A DNA stretch of 48,836 nucleotides from Escherichia phage T1: the sequence record NC_005833.1, one strand, 5' to 3'. The translations under genes and the position numbers were made by a program. Each line of letters begins with the position of its first letter. The stretch's first letter is position 1. Below, one piece after another: positions 1,996-44,512 of the stretch. Under the pieces are notes generated by a model. It worked only from the letters and a program-made list of their open reading frames with translations. It made no database searches and had not been told where the DNA came from.

Positions 1996-2102
1996 ACTTC
2001 AACATAATTGCTTTCTGGTCTGCCGTATGGTTCTTTTGCGTAGGTCATGTTGTGGTTGGAATCGTAATCATGTTGCTACTGTGTGCGGGAGCGTTCGAAT
2101 GA
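1992..2102 (+). CDS. small hydrophobic protein (36 aa, single predicted TM helix)
   Basis: Manual translation MNFNIIAFWSAVWFFCVGHVVVGIVIMLLLCAGAFE; ATG overlaps upstream stop (ATGA); below 60 aa so absent from track. Confidence 0.3.
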   Translation: MNFNIIAFWSAVWFFCVGHVVVGIVIMLLLCAGAFE

Positions 2103-2272
2103 TGCGGATTCTGATTTGCATGATGGCGGCGGTCGCCATGGCTATCCTGGTAGTGTCCGGCTGCGGCGAGGCCAGGGATAGCTGTCATGAAACCGGGAGC
2201 CAGGTTACTACTTTCGTGATGGTTGGCAACGTATTGCTACCAATAACATCAAATGAAATCACTTGCGAATAG
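2099..2272 (+). CDS. small putative lipoprotein (about 57 aa)
   Basis: Inside track ORF 2027..2272; start refined to ATG 2099 overlapping preceding stop; signal-like MMRILICMMAAVAMAILVVSGC with lipobox-like VVSGC. Confidence 0.4.
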   Translation: MMRILICMMAAVAMAILVVSGCGEARDSCHETGSQVTTFVMVGNVLLPITSNEITCE

Positions 2273-14281: not shown

Positions 14282-15049
14282 ATGGCTTACGAAAATTTAA
14301 TGTTGCGCCCGGCGTGTCCGGGAAATCTTTCTGATACTTCAACCTACAATATTGATGGCGCTTGCGTGGCTCAAGGTGACATTGAGTTCGGCTCAGCGGT
14401 TCAGGTTGTCGGCATCGTTGATGGTGTAAAAGTTGTTACGGCGCTTTCTGATGGTGGAACTCCTTACGGTATCGCTTTCCGTTCCCAATATGAACACCTG
14501 AGCGGTAAAATCCTCGACGGTGAAGTGTGCAACGTCGTTTCTCACGGTCGCGTGTGGGCGCTTACTTCTCTTGATGAGGCTCCCAGCTTGTTCTCAAAGT
14601 TGCAGTTTGGATCTGGTGGGGTTGTTACTGGTGGATCTGGTTACGCAGGATGGACCTTTGCTGGCGGCTTTGTTAAGCACGAAGATGGCTACATTATTGA
14701 GGTTCGGGTGAAACAAAATGCTTTCATCGTTCCACCGCCGCCGCCCCCTGTCGTTCTTGTTGAATCCGCTACAATCACCACTGACAAGGAAAGCCCTCAG
14801 CCAAACAACGTTACGATCCAGTGTGTAGCTAATGCTCTTCCGGCTAATGCAACTGATAAGACTGGCAAATGGTCAATCGACGCTACCAATATCGCCACTG
14901 TCAATCCGGACTCAGGTCTTGTAACTCCTGTTGGTGGAGAGGTAGTCGGTGATTTCAATATTACCTGGACGGCTAACGATGCCAGCAAGACGACGGCAAC
15001 CATTGCTTATCGCGTAGAAGCAGTGCCAACGCCAGAGGTTGATGTATAA
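14282..15049 (+). CDS. virion surface protein with polyproline linker and C-terminal Ig-like domain
   Basis: Paralogous N-terminal domain, PPPPPPVVL linker, then beta-rich segment typical of bacterial Ig-like domains. Confidence 0.55.
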   Translation: MAYENLMLRPACPGNLSDTSTYNIDGACVAQGDIEFGSAVQVVGIVDGVKVVTALSDGGTPYGIAFRSQYEHLSGKILDGEVCNVVSHGRVWALTSLDEAPSLFSKLQFGSGGVVTGGSGYAGWTFAGGFVKHEDGYIIEVRVKQNAFIVPPPPPPVVLVESATITTDKESPQPNNVTIQCVANALPANATDKTGKWSIDATNIATVNPDSGLVTPVGGEVVGDFNITWTANDASKTTATIAYRVEAVPTPEVDV

Positions 15050-19546: not shown

Positions 19547-22420
19547 ATGGTTGATAAGGTAGCAGGTCTATCTCTTGACGTTGACGTGTCAACAGTTCAG
19601 CGCGCTGTCAAGTCACTGAAAGAGTTTTCAAAGGCCAACGATCAGGCCGCTGATTCTATGGGTTCTTTAATCAATGAGTCAGAGGTTGCAAAACAGAAGG
19701 CCAAAGAACACGCCGAACAACTCAGGCGCCAGAGAAAAGAGTATGAGGCCGTGGAGAAGGCAATCGATCCTACAGTATCAAAAATGGAAAGGTTGAAGAT
19801 TGCATCTCAGCAGCTTGATAAACTCTGGCAGCAGGGAGTCGTTCCAGATGAGACTTTTTTCCGTTTGGGTGAAATGCTGGATCTGCAAAACGCAAAACTT
19901 GCTCGCAGCCGGGCCATGCTGACAGAAGAAGGGCAGGCAGCATTGCAAGAGGCGAAAGCAAAAGAGCAGGCGGCAGTGCGTAGCAAGGCGTTCATGGATG
20001 CCCTGAATGGTCAAGTTAACGCGATCGGTAAGACTCATGCTGAATTGATGGAACTGAAAGCGGCTGAGCTTGGTTTATCGAAAGAAGCAGCACCACTAAT
20101 CGCAAAACTTAAAGATCAAGGCCGGGCTATGAATGCAGCAGGTATTAGCGCCGGGGAATACAGACAGGCAATGCGAATGCTTCCTGCGCAGATCACAGAT
20201 GTCGTAACATCTCTTGCATCCGGTATGCCAGTATGGATGGTTGCTATCCAACAGGGCGGTCAGATTAAGGATTCGTTCGGCGGGATCGGTAACACGTTTA
20301 AAGTGTTGCTGAGTTATATTAATCCGGTCACGGCAGGTGTTGGCGTTCTTGTTGGTTCGTTAGGTATTCTAGCGAAAGCTGGTTATGACTCTTACAAATC
20401 AATAACTGATATTCAGAATGCGCTTATTGAGACTGGAGGTTATGCAGGTGTTACGGCTGAAGAGCTTGATTCAGTGTCTAAAAAGATCGCGCAGACAAGC
20501 AACTCAACCATTGGGAGTATTCGCGAGATTGTAACGGAGTTGGCGAGTTCTGGTAAGTACACCCGCGAGCAGATCCAGAACATCACTAAGGCTACCGCAG
20601 AGTGGTCAGCGTCAACAGGAAAATCAGCAAGTCAAATTATTTCTGAGTTCGAAAAAATAGCAAGCGATCCGGTAAAAGGACTGAAGAAGTTAAACGAGCA
20701 ATATAATTTCCTTGAAAAAGGGCAGCTTACCTATATCGATACATTAAGCCGGACGAAAGGAGAAACTGAGGCTGTATCAGAGGCTACAAAACTATTCGCA
20801 GACGTAATGGAAAAGCGAATGAAGTCGATCGCGGATAACGCTACTCCTCTGGAAAAGATGTGGAGCGATATTAAACAATGGGCTTCGGACGCGTGGGGAT
20901 GGGTTGGTGATCATACACTCGGGGCACTAAACCTGATTATCGACGTTGTTCAGGGTACAGTGATTCAGGTTAAAATGATTCTTGCGAAGGGTGATGAATA
21001 CATCTCAAACTTTATCGCCTCAGCCATAAAGGCAACTCAGTCACTGCCTGGAATGAGTGACTTCGGCGCTGATGTACTGAAGGAGCAGGAGAATATTGTA
21101 AAAAGTTCTCGCGACAACTACGATCAGTTAGCTTCAGATCTTGACGCTATTAACGCTCGTGTAGAAAAAGGCGAGATGGGATACATTGAAGCAATGAGGC
21201 AGCGCCGCACCCTTGAAAAGCAGTACAGTGAGGAAACTAAGGAGGCAATAAGGAAAGAAGCAGAAGAGATCGAGAAGCGAAACCGAGAACGAAATAAGCA
21301 GTCGAAAATTGTACGATCACCGACAGAGCAATTCGACAAGGAGTTAATTTCACTCAGGGCTCAACTTAAGGTATTGCAGGAGCATAAGGAGATCGGTCAA
21401 AAACTATCAGCACAGAGAAAGGCGCTGTTTACAACTGAGGCTACGATCGCTGTTCTTCGCGAAGCTAGTTCTAAGCGCCAGTTGTCTGCGGAAGAAAAAG
21501 CGTTGCTGGCAAGTCAGGAGAGAGTTATTGAGCTTGCGAAACAGAAGGCCGAGATTGGCGATCAGATTGTTAAGCAACAGCAGTTGAATGATCTTACCGA
21601 TAAATCTCTGAAGTTTGTCAATGAGATGACGGCGGCGACGGAACAGCTTAACGCGTCACGCGGTCTTAGTACTCGCGACATGGAACGACAAGCTGAACTA
21701 GCTAAAATCACCACTGATTACATCAACTCCGGCGGCAGCGAAGGAGACGAGAAACTTCAGAACATGATTAAGGCGCAAAATGATTACTACGCTGCGGAAG
21801 ATGCCAAGCGAGCTGACTGGTTGGCAGGTGCTGAAAGTGCTTTTGCTGATTACGGTGATGCAGCAATGGATATGTACGGCAATGTTAACGAGATCGCGTC
21901 AAGTGCCCTTAACGGAATGTCAGATATGATGGTTCAATTTCTGACCACAGGAAAAGCGAACTTTGAGGACTTTGCGAAAAATATCATCGGCATGATTATA
22001 AAGATGATTGCTCAGATGGTAATCTTCAATACGATCTCAGGCATGATGGGCGGTAAGACGTGGAGCTTTGCTGGAGGGGCGTCGTCTGGTGCTTCTGCGG
22101 CATCACAGGCAACCCCTACACCTGCTGCTTCTGTTTTTAGATCTGTATCTTCCGGCGGGGCCGCTGTATCACTTGCTGCCGCAGCGGGTAGCGTGGCAAC
22201 CTCTGGATTCAACGCATCAAACTCGGCGCCAAAGGTGGTAAACCATTCAGGAGGTGGAACGGTCGTTGACGTTAGCGGAATGGAGGTGAAAGTTGACAAC
22301 GGTTCAGATCCGAGGGGGATTTCTCAGGGCGTGGAAATGATGTTCAAAAAAATGATTCGTGAGTCTTGTTCGCAGGGCGGCGAGGTTTATAATTACATTC
22401 AGGAAAAAACAGGAGGCTAA
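19547..22420 (+). CDS. tail tape measure protein
   Basis: Track ORF 19487..22420; start refined to ATG 19547 after G-rich RBS; long helical Ala/Glu/Lys/Gln-rich protein with Gly/Ala/Ser-rich C-terminus. Confidence 0.85.
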
Positions 22421-29601: not shown

Positions 29602-29624
29602 GCCCCTTGCGGGGCTTTTATTTT
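29601..29624. terminator. bidirectional terminator between convergent genes
   Basis: AGCCCC ttgc GGGGCT flanked by T-run (plus) and A-run (minus). Confidence 0.6.
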
Positions 29625-29850
29625 ATATCGAGCAATCGTGAGATTTGAAGTTTTTCTCTGATACATAGTTGAAGGAGAATGGGTATCCAGCACGCAATAC
29701 CATCTCCTTTCCGCGCATCTTAGATCCAAAAACGTAAACCGAGTACTCCGCGCCGCCTGATTCATAAATTGCCGTGCAAGTGCGCTCAGGCATCGATGAG
29801 CAACCAGTCAGGATGAATGCCGCAGCGATAATGGTGATTAACTTTTTCAT
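29623..29850 (-). CDS. small outer-membrane-type lipoprotein (Cor/Llp-like superinfection exclusion candidate)
   Basis: 75 aa; signal peptide with lipobox LTGC (MKKLITIIAAAFILTGCSS); lone reverse-strand gene after tail module. Confidence 0.5.
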   Translation of the reverse strand: MKKLITIIAAAFILTGCSSMPERTCTAIYESGGAEYSVYVFGSKMRGKEMVLRAGYPFSFNYVSEKNFKSHDCSI

Positions 29851-42027: not shown

Positions 42028-42510
42028 ATGAACTGGCACGAGCATTACGAATATAGGGATGGTGTTCTATATCACAAGGTAAAGCCATGCAGAAGGCATG
42101 ATGTAAATATTGGGGATGTTGCTGGAAGGGTTGCCAAAAACGGCTATCACTATGTTGTTCACAAGAACAGGCCGTATAAGAGATCTCGAGTTATATGGGA
42201 GATGTTTAATGGTGAGATACCAGATGGTTTTGTTATAGATCATCTGAATCACAATGCCACCGATGATAGGATCGATAACCTTGAGTGTAAGCCAAGAAGA
42301 GAGAATATGGTTAATGTTAAGTTAAGGATTGATAGCACGACCGGAGTAACTGGCGTATCAAGAAAGAGGGATAACAAGTGGAGGGCGTACATAACAATTA
42401 TGGGTAAGCAGAAGTGCAAGAGCTTTGACACGTTTGAGGAAGCTTGCGCGCAGAGGATTGAATGGTCAGTAACTCATGATTTTCACCCAAATCACGGTGG
42501 AACATACTAA
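42028..42510 (+). CDS. HNH homing endonuclease with AP2-like domain
   Basis: GEIPDGFVIDHLNHNATDDRIDNL HNH core, TGVTGVS..KWRAYI AP2-like segment; AGA/AGG/ATA-rich codons. Confidence 0.75.
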   Translation: MNWHEHYEYRDGVLYHKVKPCRRHDVNIGDVAGRVAKNGYHYVVHKNRPYKRSRVIWEMFNGEIPDGFVIDHLNHNATDDRIDNLECKPRRENMVNVKLRIDSTTGVTGVSRKRDNKWRAYITIMGKQKCKSFDTFEEACAQRIEWSVTHDFHPNHGGTY

Positions 42511-42582: not shown

Positions 42583-42759
42583 ATGAAGATAGTCAAGTGC
42601 ATCCGAAATGACTCCAAAACACTTCCATTCCGTGTAAATCAGATCTATAGTGTTGGTTATGATTTCGGTGGGGGATTATTTGAGATTTACGACGGGCGAG
42701 GTTCAGCAATCCAGACTCCTCTGAACGGTCACTACCTGGAATTTATTGAGATAGATTAA
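42583..42759 (+). CDS. small hypothetical protein (58 aa)
   Basis: Manual translation downstream of box element 42510-42560; weak RBS. Confidence 0.3.
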   Translation: MKIVKCIRNDSKTLPFRVNQIYSVGYDFGGGLFEIYDGRGSAIQTPLNGHYLEFIEID

Positions 42760-42877
42760 CAATAGCATTCATCACCTTACAGGCTGGCATGATTTACATG
42801 CTGGCCTTTTTGCGTTGTGTCAAATAAATTTGAAGGTTAAAATCGACTCACTTGTTCAAAAAATATATGGTGAGATT

Positions 42878-43093
42878 ATGAAAGAGTTTTTAACGGCTGC
42901 TACGTCAAGCACTGGCGGTGCTTCGTTGGTAGGGGCGGCGACAGGGCAACTTTATATTGCTGGCGCTACATTCATTTGCTTTCTGCTTTTTGGTGCCTGG
43001 GGAGCGTACTGGAAGTATCGTGATAGCAAGGCAATTCAGGAAGCGTTAAACGATGGCGATCTAAATAAGGCGCTTAAGATCAGGGGGAGATAA
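42878..43093 (+). CDS. holin (pinholin-like, two TMDs)
   Basis: Track ORF 42815..43093; start refined to ATG 42878; Gly/Ala/Ser/Thr-rich TMD1 then TMD2 [21 protein letters not shown]; immediately upstream of endolysin. Confidence 0.6.
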
Positions 43094-43581
43094 TGAGTTT
43101 AAAAAATAACGTTATAGGCGCATCAATCGGGGCCGCTTTGACGTTGACACCTACCCTACTGGAACGGATCGAAGGTATAGAATACGAGGTTTATTACGAT
43201 ATCGCCGGAGTCCCTACCGTATGCAGCGGAATAACCGGGCCTGACGTCATACCTGGTAAGAAATACACTAAGCGAGAATGCGATGCATTGCTGATAAAAC
43301 ATATCGGCGTCGCTCAGCGATACGTTGACAAGAAGGTTAAGGTTGACATTCCGGTAACTATGCGCGCATCACTGTATAGCTTCACTTTCAACGTTGGGAC
43401 TGGCGCTTTCGGATCGTCTACAATGCTTAAGCTAATCAATCAGCGCAAGCACAAAGAAGCGTGTAATCAGTTATGGCGATGGGTATACTACTACAACCCA
43501 AAAACCAAAAAGCGCGAAGTGTCGAGAGGGATCAAGAATCGGCGCGCTGAAGAATACGCATATTGCGTTAAGGAACTATAA
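43093..43581 (+). CDS. endolysin, GH24-type lysozyme with N-terminal SAR-like signal-anchor
   Basis: E-D-T catalytic pattern ..[26 protein letters not shown]..; N-terminal weakly hydrophobic [19 protein letters not shown]. Confidence 0.8.
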
Positions 43582-43982
43582 TGAAACTTAAGAAAACGTG
43601 CATTGCAATTACGGTTGCTGTTGGTGTGATTTCTCTATCCGGTTGTTCGACGGCATCTGCTCTGAGTGGTTTACTTTCTGACTCCCCGGATGTTACGGCG
43701 CAGGTTGGCGCTGAGAACACAAAACAACTAGCAGGAGTAACAGCAAAGGCGGATGATAAGCGAGAAGTGAAGGTGAGTGATTCAAATATTGGCAAGATTG
43801 ACTCATCCGTCAAGAAGTCCGTGGAGGTGTCAACCATTCAGGCCAACACGGTTAACGCTGAAAGCATCACAGTAACCAAATCTGGAAGCTGGTACGATCC
43901 TGTGGTTTGCTGGATTCTCGTTTTTATTGTCCTGTTGCTGTTTTATTTTTTAATTCGTAAGCACGAAAAAAAGGAGGCGTAA
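43581..43982 (+). CDS. unimolecular spanin (u-spanin)
   Basis: N-terminal lipoprotein signal with lipobox LSGC plus C-terminal TM helix CWILVFIVLLLFYFLI; last gene of lysis cassette. Confidence 0.7.
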   Translation: MKLKKTCIAITVAVGVISLSGCSTASALSGLLSDSPDVTAQVGAENTKQLAGVTAKADDKREVKVSDSNIGKIDSSVKKSVEVSTIQANTVNAESITVTKSGSWYDPVVCWILVFIVLLLFYFLIRKHEKKEA

Positions 43983-43998
43983 GCCTCCTTTCTTATTT
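43965..43998. terminator. bidirectional terminator between lysis cassette and convergent leftward operon
   Basis: A7 then AGGAGGC gtaa GCCTCCT then T-rich. Confidence 0.65.
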
Positions 43999-44104
43999 GT
44001 ACCTTTTGACGTGAAGTAGCAACTCCCCATCCTGATCGCAAAGATTGTGCTCACCGTCGTTATTGGCCCTCATCGAAGTGAGCAGTAGGCTAAGTAATCC
44101 TTGC

Positions 44105-44512
44105 TCAAATTCTTCTTTCGTAAGCTGGAGCCTTGCGCACAATTCGACGTTCCGATCTATCAATGTTTCTACGTTCGCCAAACAAGTCTTCATCACTCAT
44201 TTCTCCAATGTGCATCATTTCCCACGTATATCGATTGTTGTAGCCATCAATACACATCAGCTTCATCATTACCGGGCGCTTGATCTTTCCCTTGCACCAG
44301 TAAAATCCACCCTTGCAATCAAGATAACCCTCAGTCACGCAGCGTGCGCAAAACTCCTTAGACAGCGCGCTTGTAAATTCACGGCGAGTCATTCCGGCGG
44401 CCTTAGCAAATCGCTCACTTTCCTTGTGGGCGTATATAAATTTCGCTATGTGCTGTCGAGTGTATTTGTCGTAACCTTCGCAGAACCTGAACAGATCTAA
44501 AAGAAGAAGCAT
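44105..44512 (-). CDS. hypothetical protein (135 aa)
   Basis: Track reverse ORF downstream of P-loop NTPase gene; Cys-rich. Confidence 0.4.
   Translation of the reverse strand: MLLLLDLFRFCEGYDKYTRQHIAKFIYAHKESERFAKAAGMTRREFTSALSKEFCARCVTEGYLDCKGGFYWCKGKIKRPVMMKLMCIDGYNNRYTWEMMHIGEMSDEDLFGERRNIDRSERRIVRKAPAYERRI

Follow-up and report, generated by a model that had tools for sequence, protein, structure and literature searches.

Which kind of host lysis is encoded at positions 42,878–43,982 of the coliphage T1 genome, and how far can the answer be read from the DNA itself? [quoted passage not shown] We followed up this description in the whole stretch of DNA from Escherichia phage T1 (48,836 nucleotides; NC_005833.1), which we refer to as the window. 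The coordinates proved exact: the interval holds three open reading frames (ORFs), arranged head to tail on the plus strand, and an exact-sequence look-up shows that their products are residue for residue those of T1 genes 13, 12 and 11 in UniProt and GenBank. This identifies the interval as the T1 lysis cassette (Table 1). The region 42,700–44,100 is 99.8–99.9% identical to Tunavirus T1 (MN153797) and phage JMPW2, and bases 1–25,000 of the window run collinear with Tunavirus T1, beginning at base 1 of that genome, with 99.9% identity; in the second T1 isolate, MN153797, gp11 differs by P36Q. PHROGs labels the three products as holin, endolysin (E 1.3e-49) and Rz-like spanin. Pfam assigns gp12 to PF00959 (Phage_lysozyme, E 6.9e-33) and gives nothing significant for gp13 or gp11, and in NCBIfam none of the three proteins has a family-level match that passes the curated cut-off.

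The reading of this cassette as pinholin, SAR endolysin and unimolecular spanin (u-spanin) is already known, published and curated; it is given in PMC4559738 and PMC11447400. Because the u-spanin concept was itself defined on the T1 cassette, the finding adds little to what is on record. What it means is that a correct three-part functional annotation can be recovered from raw sequence alone. The three parts differ in their standing: the u-spanin role of gp11 is experimentally established in the literature, and the assignments of gp13 as a pinholin and of gp12 as a SAR endolysin appear, in the literature that we searched, to rest on prediction and homology.

Table 1. Positions of the genes, protein segments and regulatory elements of the T1 lysis cassette
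Feature	Position in window	Strand	Remarks
Terminator-like hairpin, 11-bp stem, 5-nt loop, T5 tail	42781..42812 (hairpin 42781–42807)	+	65 nt upstream of the holin start
Shine–Dalgarno GGTGAG for the holin ATG at 42878	42869..42874	+	Read from the sequence; kept in relatives
Holin gp13	42878..43093	+	71 aa; HOLIN_BPT1, AAP49986.1; phrog_2877 holin, E 1.9e-38
Holin TMD1, residues 4–23	42887..42946	+	80% G/A/S/T, mean KD 0.84; weakly hydrophobic, SAR-like
Holin TMD2, residues 25–45	42950..43012	+	Predicted stable membrane helix; mean KD 1.53; cheapest gp13 19-mer to insert on the Hessa scale
Endolysin gp12	43093..43581	+	162 aa; ENLYS_BPT1 "SAR-endolysin", AAP49987.1; GH24/T4-type muramidase, R21 family
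Predicted SAR domain, residues 5–23	43105..43161	+	After Lys4; 19 uncharged residues, no Cys
Catalytic motif E27-x8-D36-x5-T42	43171..43218	+	Triad invariant in 54 aligned sequences including R21
Unimolecular spanin gp11	43581..43982	+	133 aa; SPANU_BPT1 "U-spanin", AAP49988.1/YP_003934.1; phrog_1804, E 9.7e-45
Lipoprotein signal peptide, lipobox L19-S-G-C22	43581..43646	+	Position +2 is Ser23, not the Asp that retains lipoproteins in the inner membrane
In-frame GTG codons Val63 (43767) and Val65 (43773)	43767..43775	+	Begin the shorter UniProt forms gp11a (71 aa) and gp11a' (69 aa)
C-terminal inner-membrane TMD, residues 107–126	43899..43958	+	Mean KD 2.6; Hessa costs sum to -1.1; then basic KHEKKEA tail
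Bidirectional terminator-like hairpin	43970..43991	both	Overlaps the gp11 stop codon; common to the convergent minus-strand genes

The layout of the cassette is compact. Both gene junctions read TAATG, with a one-base overlap, and a Shine–Dalgarno sequence can be read at every start (GGTGAG, GGGGGAG and AAGGA). The junctions are kept in four Tunavirus relatives, in which the endolysin/spanin junction is TGATG rather than TAATG. The hairpin upstream of the holin gene has a folding energy of -16.9 kcal/mol (z -3.2; none of 200 shuffled sequences folded equally well), is kept in the four relatives and has a homologous site in SA32RD that is annotated as a rho-independent terminator; this intrinsic-terminator-like element probably closes the upstream transcription unit. 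At the far end, the second hairpin stands out on both strands (z -5.5 on the plus and -5.7 on the minus strand, where it is followed by a U7 tail), is likewise kept in relatives and corresponds to an SA32RD element annotated as a terminator on both strands. A scan for sigma-70-like promoters in the DNA from the upstream hairpin to the start of the holin gene gave no candidate that passed. As judged from the sequence, genes 13, 12 and 11 are translationally coupled through their TAATG overlaps and bracketed by two putative terminator hairpins.

The last gene is where prediction and published experiment meet most closely. The initial annotation had seen in it an LSGC lipobox and a C-terminal transmembrane helix within one polypeptide, and both were located, with the lipobox cysteine at residue 22. 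Among 65 homologues of gp11, the lipobox is found in 64 and the C-terminal transmembrane domain (TMD) in 61, the exceptions being truncated or frameshifted entries, and a periplasmic cysteine occurs in only one. An alignment of 27 homologues shows that G21 and C22 are invariant and that a P-x-V-T-A-Q-V-G-A-E-N motif is conserved. In the AF2 model made from this alignment (pLDDT 54), the only helices are the signal peptide and the C-terminal TMD (residues 107–129); the periplasmic domain of the monomer has no confident fold and no strands (pLDDT 40–50), and the published prediction of a beta-rich domain is therefore not reproduced, which neither confirms nor refutes it. The choice of a u-spanin over separate inner- and outer-membrane spanins, also made in the initial annotation, agrees with the literature, in which gp11 is the prototype unimolecular spanin (PMC6139136), and with the absence of a second lipobox ORF from the cassette. 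The cassette was also searched for a two-component spanin that might lie hidden in it and for embedded lipoprotein ORFs, and contains neither. With two exceptions, the members of the T1gp11 family are encoded in cassettes with a pinholin and a SAR endolysin (PMC6139136).

A further comparison is with the two-component Rz/Rz1 spanin of phage lambda. The two systems are functionally interchangeable (PMC6139136), and both bridge the periplasm, with a lipoprotein anchor in the outer membrane at one end and a TMD in the inner membrane at the other. Rz and Rz1 do so as two chains, with the TMD at the N terminus, whereas gp11 is one chain with its TMD at the C terminus. Furthermore, gp11 differs in having neither predicted coiled coils nor periplasmic cysteines and, lacking the latter, would form no disulfide-linked dimers.

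The middle gene encodes a lysozyme whose close relative is the SAR endolysin R21 of phage 21. The weakly hydrophobic N-terminal segment that the initial annotation had placed ahead of an E-D-T catalytic pattern is indeed there: residues 5–23 have a mean KD of 1.13 and a G/A/S/T content of 47%, and the triad follows. The same arrangement recurs in 88 of 91 gp12 homologues, in which the triad stands behind an uncharged N-terminal stretch of 15–21 residues (median 18) that consists of about 50% G/A/S/T and is nearly always preceded by a basic residue. Such conservation, here as in gp11, shows that the features did not arise by chance. Aligned over 156 amino acids, gp12 and R21 share 45% identity (E 8e-42), and the best sequence matches of gp12 in the PDB are R21 (3HDE, E 2.5e-34; 3HDF) and RrrD of DLP12 (4ZPU); the alignment with 3HDE begins at gp12 residue 11, inside the anchor region. 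An AF2 model of gp12 reached a pLDDT of 87, and a Foldseek search with this model returned 4ZPU (RrrD) and 3HDE (full-length R21) as the top matches. The SAR reading thus agrees with the "SAR-endolysin" entry in UniProt and with the description of T1 Gp12 as "a predicted SAR endolysin" (PMC11447400, the TLS paper). Overall, we infer from the strong homology to R21 that gp12 behaves as a SAR endolysin.

The anchor also suggests how the enzyme may be kept inactive. A gap of three residues separates the last hydrophobic anchor residue, Leu23, from the catalytic Glu27, which would hold the active site at the membrane and leave gp12 inactive while tethered. The corresponding gap in R21 is longer, about 8 residues. 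The two enzymes are homologous and have in common the E-x8-D-x5-T pattern, four conserved cysteine positions and an N-terminal Gly/Ala-rich anchor. P1 Lyz offers a second comparison: it shares with gp12 an N-terminal SAR anchor and a T4-type lysozyme fold, and its structure (1XJT) was a weaker Foldseek match, at rank 21. P1 Lyz is disulfide-caged, whereas cysteine is absent from residues 1–26 of gp12, including the SAR segment; a thiol–disulfide isomerisation switch of the P1 type is therefore not expected, and gp12 would belong to the R21-type refolding class.

The first gene of the cassette encodes the holin. Some GenBank records start the gene further upstream, giving products of 87 or 92 amino acids; we rejected these starts because in relatives the A-run upstream carries a 1-nt indel that takes the extension out of frame and because distant homologues are 70–71 amino acids long, which leaves the 71-residue form as the conserved one. 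On hydropathy scales the protein has two segments, residues 4–23 and 25–45, joined by about 1–3 residues within an invariant TGQ, and a charged tail (residues 46–71) that follows TMD2 and is assigned to the cytoplasm. The Gly/Ala/Ser/Thr-rich character noted earlier for the first TMD holds and is uncommon in the window: among the 13,012 20-mers scanned in 57 ORFs of at least 100 amino acids plus the holin, 21 overlapping ones are uncharged with at least 75% G/A/S/T, and they come from three proteins, the holin and the large ORFs at 14282–15049 and 19547–22420. In eight homologues of gp13 (65–79% identity) both hydrophobic segments are kept, and G13, G14 and A21-T22-G23-Q24 are invariant.

We compared gp13 with S21, the pinholin of phage 21, using an S21 sequence that occurs unchanged (100% identity) in the genome of phage 21, where the cassette is annotated as antiholin/pinholin, SAR endolysin, i-spanin and o-spanin. 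The gene order of holin, endolysin and spanin is that of T1, whereas the spanin of phage 21 is an embedded two-component Rz/Rz1 pair and that of T1 a single polypeptide. S21 and gp13 are both 71 amino acids long, with a weak, small-residue-rich TMD1 and a stronger TMD2. They differ in degree, in that TMD1 of S21 has 47–63% G/A/S/T and a mean KD of 0.22–0.28, depending on the window used, against the higher values of gp13; in the link between the helices, which is about 9 residues in S21 and about 3 in gp13; and in the dual-start antiholin of phage 21, which gp13, having a single Met, lacks. BLASTP found no match between the two proteins at E ≤ 100, hhalign gave a probability of 0.2%, and gp13 has no match to PF04971 (Phage_holin_2_1) at E ≤ 1, although S21 itself matches this family at 8.6e-36; the precomputed family on gp13 homologues is PF27028. 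Membership of gp13 in the S21 family was accordingly rejected, and, in the absence of detectable homology to S21, 'pinholin' is for gp13 a label of functional class only.

Within these terms, the topology and composition of gp13 and its pairing with a SAR endolysin predict a class II pinholin. The pinholin of the initial annotation thereby agrees with a published proposal, in which the T1 holin is "proposed" as class II (PMC11447400), and stands as a prediction for a protein that has no homology to S21.

A pathway of pinholin, SAR endolysin and u-spanin is very probably the best explanation for the T1 cassette. In this pathway, Sec would export gp12, whose SAR helix would keep the inactive enzyme tethered to the periplasmic side of the inner membrane, and gp13 would build up in the inner membrane as a predicted two-helix hairpin with both ends inside (N-in, C-in). 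At a set time, TMD1 of gp13 is predicted to exit the bilayer and TMD2 to oligomerise into small holes, with collapse of the proton-motive force. Depolarisation would free the SAR helix of gp12, and the enzyme would refold and degrade the peptidoglycan. The lipid on Cys22 would hold gp11 in the outer membrane and the C-terminal TMD would hold it in the inner one; loss of the peptidoglycan would leave gp11 unhindered in disrupting the outer membrane, with fusion of the two membranes as the probable route. The pinhole step in this series is a prediction, drawn only from composition, topology and context.

For each of the three proteins another reading can be set against this pathway. The protein gp11 could be an ordinary lipoprotein, such as a superinfection-exclusion protein, with the outer membrane disrupted by something else; such a role would fit a protein that resembles neither Rz nor Rz1 in sequence and has no Pfam family and no confident predicted fold. 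This is scarcely credible, given that gene 11 complements the lysis defect of lambda RzRz1 (PMC6139136, citing Summer et al. 2007) and that the lipobox has been mutated and assayed, with the change from LSGC to AWAC keeping gp11 function and an AWAS variant assayed too (PMC6139136); the ordinary-lipoprotein reading is already refuted in the literature. The position of the gene also speaks against it, last in the cassette and translationally coupled to the endolysin gene, as does the conservation of both membrane signals across the gp11 family; moreover, lipobox ORFs elsewhere in the genome are confined to 2099–2272 and 29623–29850, more than 13 kb away. For gp12, the N terminus might be something other than a releasable anchor, either a cleaved Sec signal peptide, which would make the enzyme secreted and constitutively active, or a helix with a purely structural role, in which case gp12 would be a cytoplasmic enzyme that depends on a large hole to get out. 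Only 17 residues make up the hydrophobic core of this segment, Pro20 is one of them, and its mean KD lies below that of the R21 core (1.68 versus 2.11); residues 2–26, with the predicted SAR segment among them, form one helix in the AF2 model, and the literature searched contained no direct experiment on gp12, whether on membrane tethering or on release. Against both variants, the N-terminal segment of gp12 aligns with that of R21, whose SAR domain is proven by experiment, the best structural matches of gp12 are full-length R21 and RrrD, UniProt curates it as a SAR endolysin, and a basic residue followed by an uncharged Gly/Ala-rich stretch is maintained in nearly all of its homologues; a purely structural helix of a cytoplasmic enzyme would have no need to remain uncharged. 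We consider an N terminus of either kind very unlikely, and a releasable SAR anchor remains the preferred reading of gp12.

The residual uncertainty about the cassette concerns only whether gp13 truly forms pinholes, given that it has no S21 homology. It could be a holin of another sort, one that makes large non-specific holes as lambda S105 does, or one that crosses the membrane once, through a single TMD, and leaves its N-terminal tail in the periplasm; that it is paired with a SAR endolysin would then be incidental. Besides the missing relationship to the S21 family, the short linker between its two segments leaves some doubt about a stable hairpin. SAR endolysins also function with canonical large-hole holins, as with N4 gp61; according to the N4 preprint, a SAR endolysin is functional with either holin type and the type of holin needs experimental validation, and the pairing in T1 is therefore no proof of pinholes. 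The operational definition used in that preprint, which was applied to N4 gp63, is that a pinholin complements an S21 defect and not a lambda S defect, since holes of nanometre scale would allow lysis by a SAR endolysin and not by a soluble one; the literature searched contained no direct test of the hole size of gp13. In favour of a pinholin, by contrast, TMD1 of gp13 shares the character of TMD1 of S21, being G/A/S/T-rich and weakly hydrophobic, and keeps it in homologues at 65–79% identity, and the laboratory that defined pinholins classes the T1 holin as a class II pinholin (PMC6139136). We regard a holin of another sort as distinctly unlikely. To our knowledge, moreover, the known large-hole holins are bigger than gp13, with its 71 residues and one strong TMD, which counts against large holes. 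A related doubt concerns triggering: because gp13 is unrelated to S21, lacks a dual-start antiholin and has the invariant three-residue TGQ turn, it may trigger differently from S21. That gp13, as a member of the non-S21 family PF27028, uses a different trigger or makes no pinholes, so that the only built-in brake would be the spanin step through gp11a and gp11a', seems to us rather improbable.

These shorter forms of gp11 start at internal GTG codons of gene 11, at codons 63 and 65. A shorter, internally initiated product of the gene is said to regulate gp11 negatively. Both codons are GTG in T1 and EF3-1 and GTT in Shfl1, phiL and SA32RD; the internal starts are therefore lineage-specific and not a conserved feature of the family.

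A start-site question in the T1 lysis cassette concerns the holin gene gp13, for which some GenBank records annotate a product of 87 or 92 amino acids (aa) that begins at an upstream TTG (window 42815-42877). In relatives, a 1-nucleotide (nt) indel in the run of A residues at about position 42858 places this upstream extension out of frame, and we therefore rejected the longer forms. The true holin start is thus the ATG of the 71-aa form. The holin gene is unannotated in the records of the Tunavirus relatives EF3-1, phiL and SA32RD.

Sequence variation also bears on the internal starts in the u-spanin gene gp11. The codons for Val63 and Val65, from which the UniProt isoforms gp11a and gp11a' would arise, read GTG in both T1 and EF3-1, whereas the other relatives compared (Shfl1, phiL and SA32RD) have GTT at these sites, and the internal-start products thus appear to be lineage-specific. 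An AlphaFold2 (AF2) monomer model contains no beta strands in the periplasmic domain of gp11 (residues 23-106) and assigns no structure there with confidence (pLDDT 40-50); a published prediction describes this domain as mainly beta-sheet (PMC6139136). The domain may fold only upon oligomerisation. In the endolysin gp12, four cysteines (C44, C63, C124 and C158) are invariant or nearly so throughout the gp12/R21 family.

In a relative, Shigella phage vB_SsoS_008 (proteins P0178 and P0099), the annotated 'endolysin', of 141 aa, bears both the holin family PF27028 and the Phage_lysozyme domain PF00959, and the spanin is shortened to 126 aa and lacks the C-terminal transmembrane domain. Both oddities probably stem from errors in the database record, either frameshifts or sequencing mistakes.

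Strong terminator-like hairpins flank the lysis cassette on both sides (see table). A scan of the 65 nt from the upstream hairpin to the holin start revealed no sigma-70-like promoter, and the cassette may be transcribed by read-through or from an unrecognised promoter. The two minus-strand ORFs that lie immediately beyond the shared terminator have about 90 nt in common. Two further small ORFs with lipoprotein signals are both distant from the lysis cassette and may encode superinfection-exclusion or receptor-blocking lipoproteins.

Features in and around the lysis cassette, and distant lipoprotein-signal ORFs, in the T1 genome
Feature	Position	Strand	Details
Small ORF	2099-2272	+	57 aa; lipoprotein signal …LVVSGC
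Small ORF	29623-29850	-	75 aa; lipoprotein signal …ILTGC
HNH homing-endonuclease ORF	42028-42510	+	just upstream of lysis region; phrog_99, E 1.3e-53
Conserved ORF	42583-42759		58 aa; between HNH ORF and holin; phrog_4788
Terminator-like hairpin	42781-42812		strong; upstream flank of cassette
GTG codons Val63, Val65	43767-43775	+	in frame within gp11; isoforms gp11a (71 aa), gp11a' (69 aa)
Terminator-like hairpin	43970-43991		strong; downstream flank; predicted to serve both strands
Convergent ORF	43993-44196	-	phrog_9539
Convergent ORF	44105-44512	-	phrog_2794
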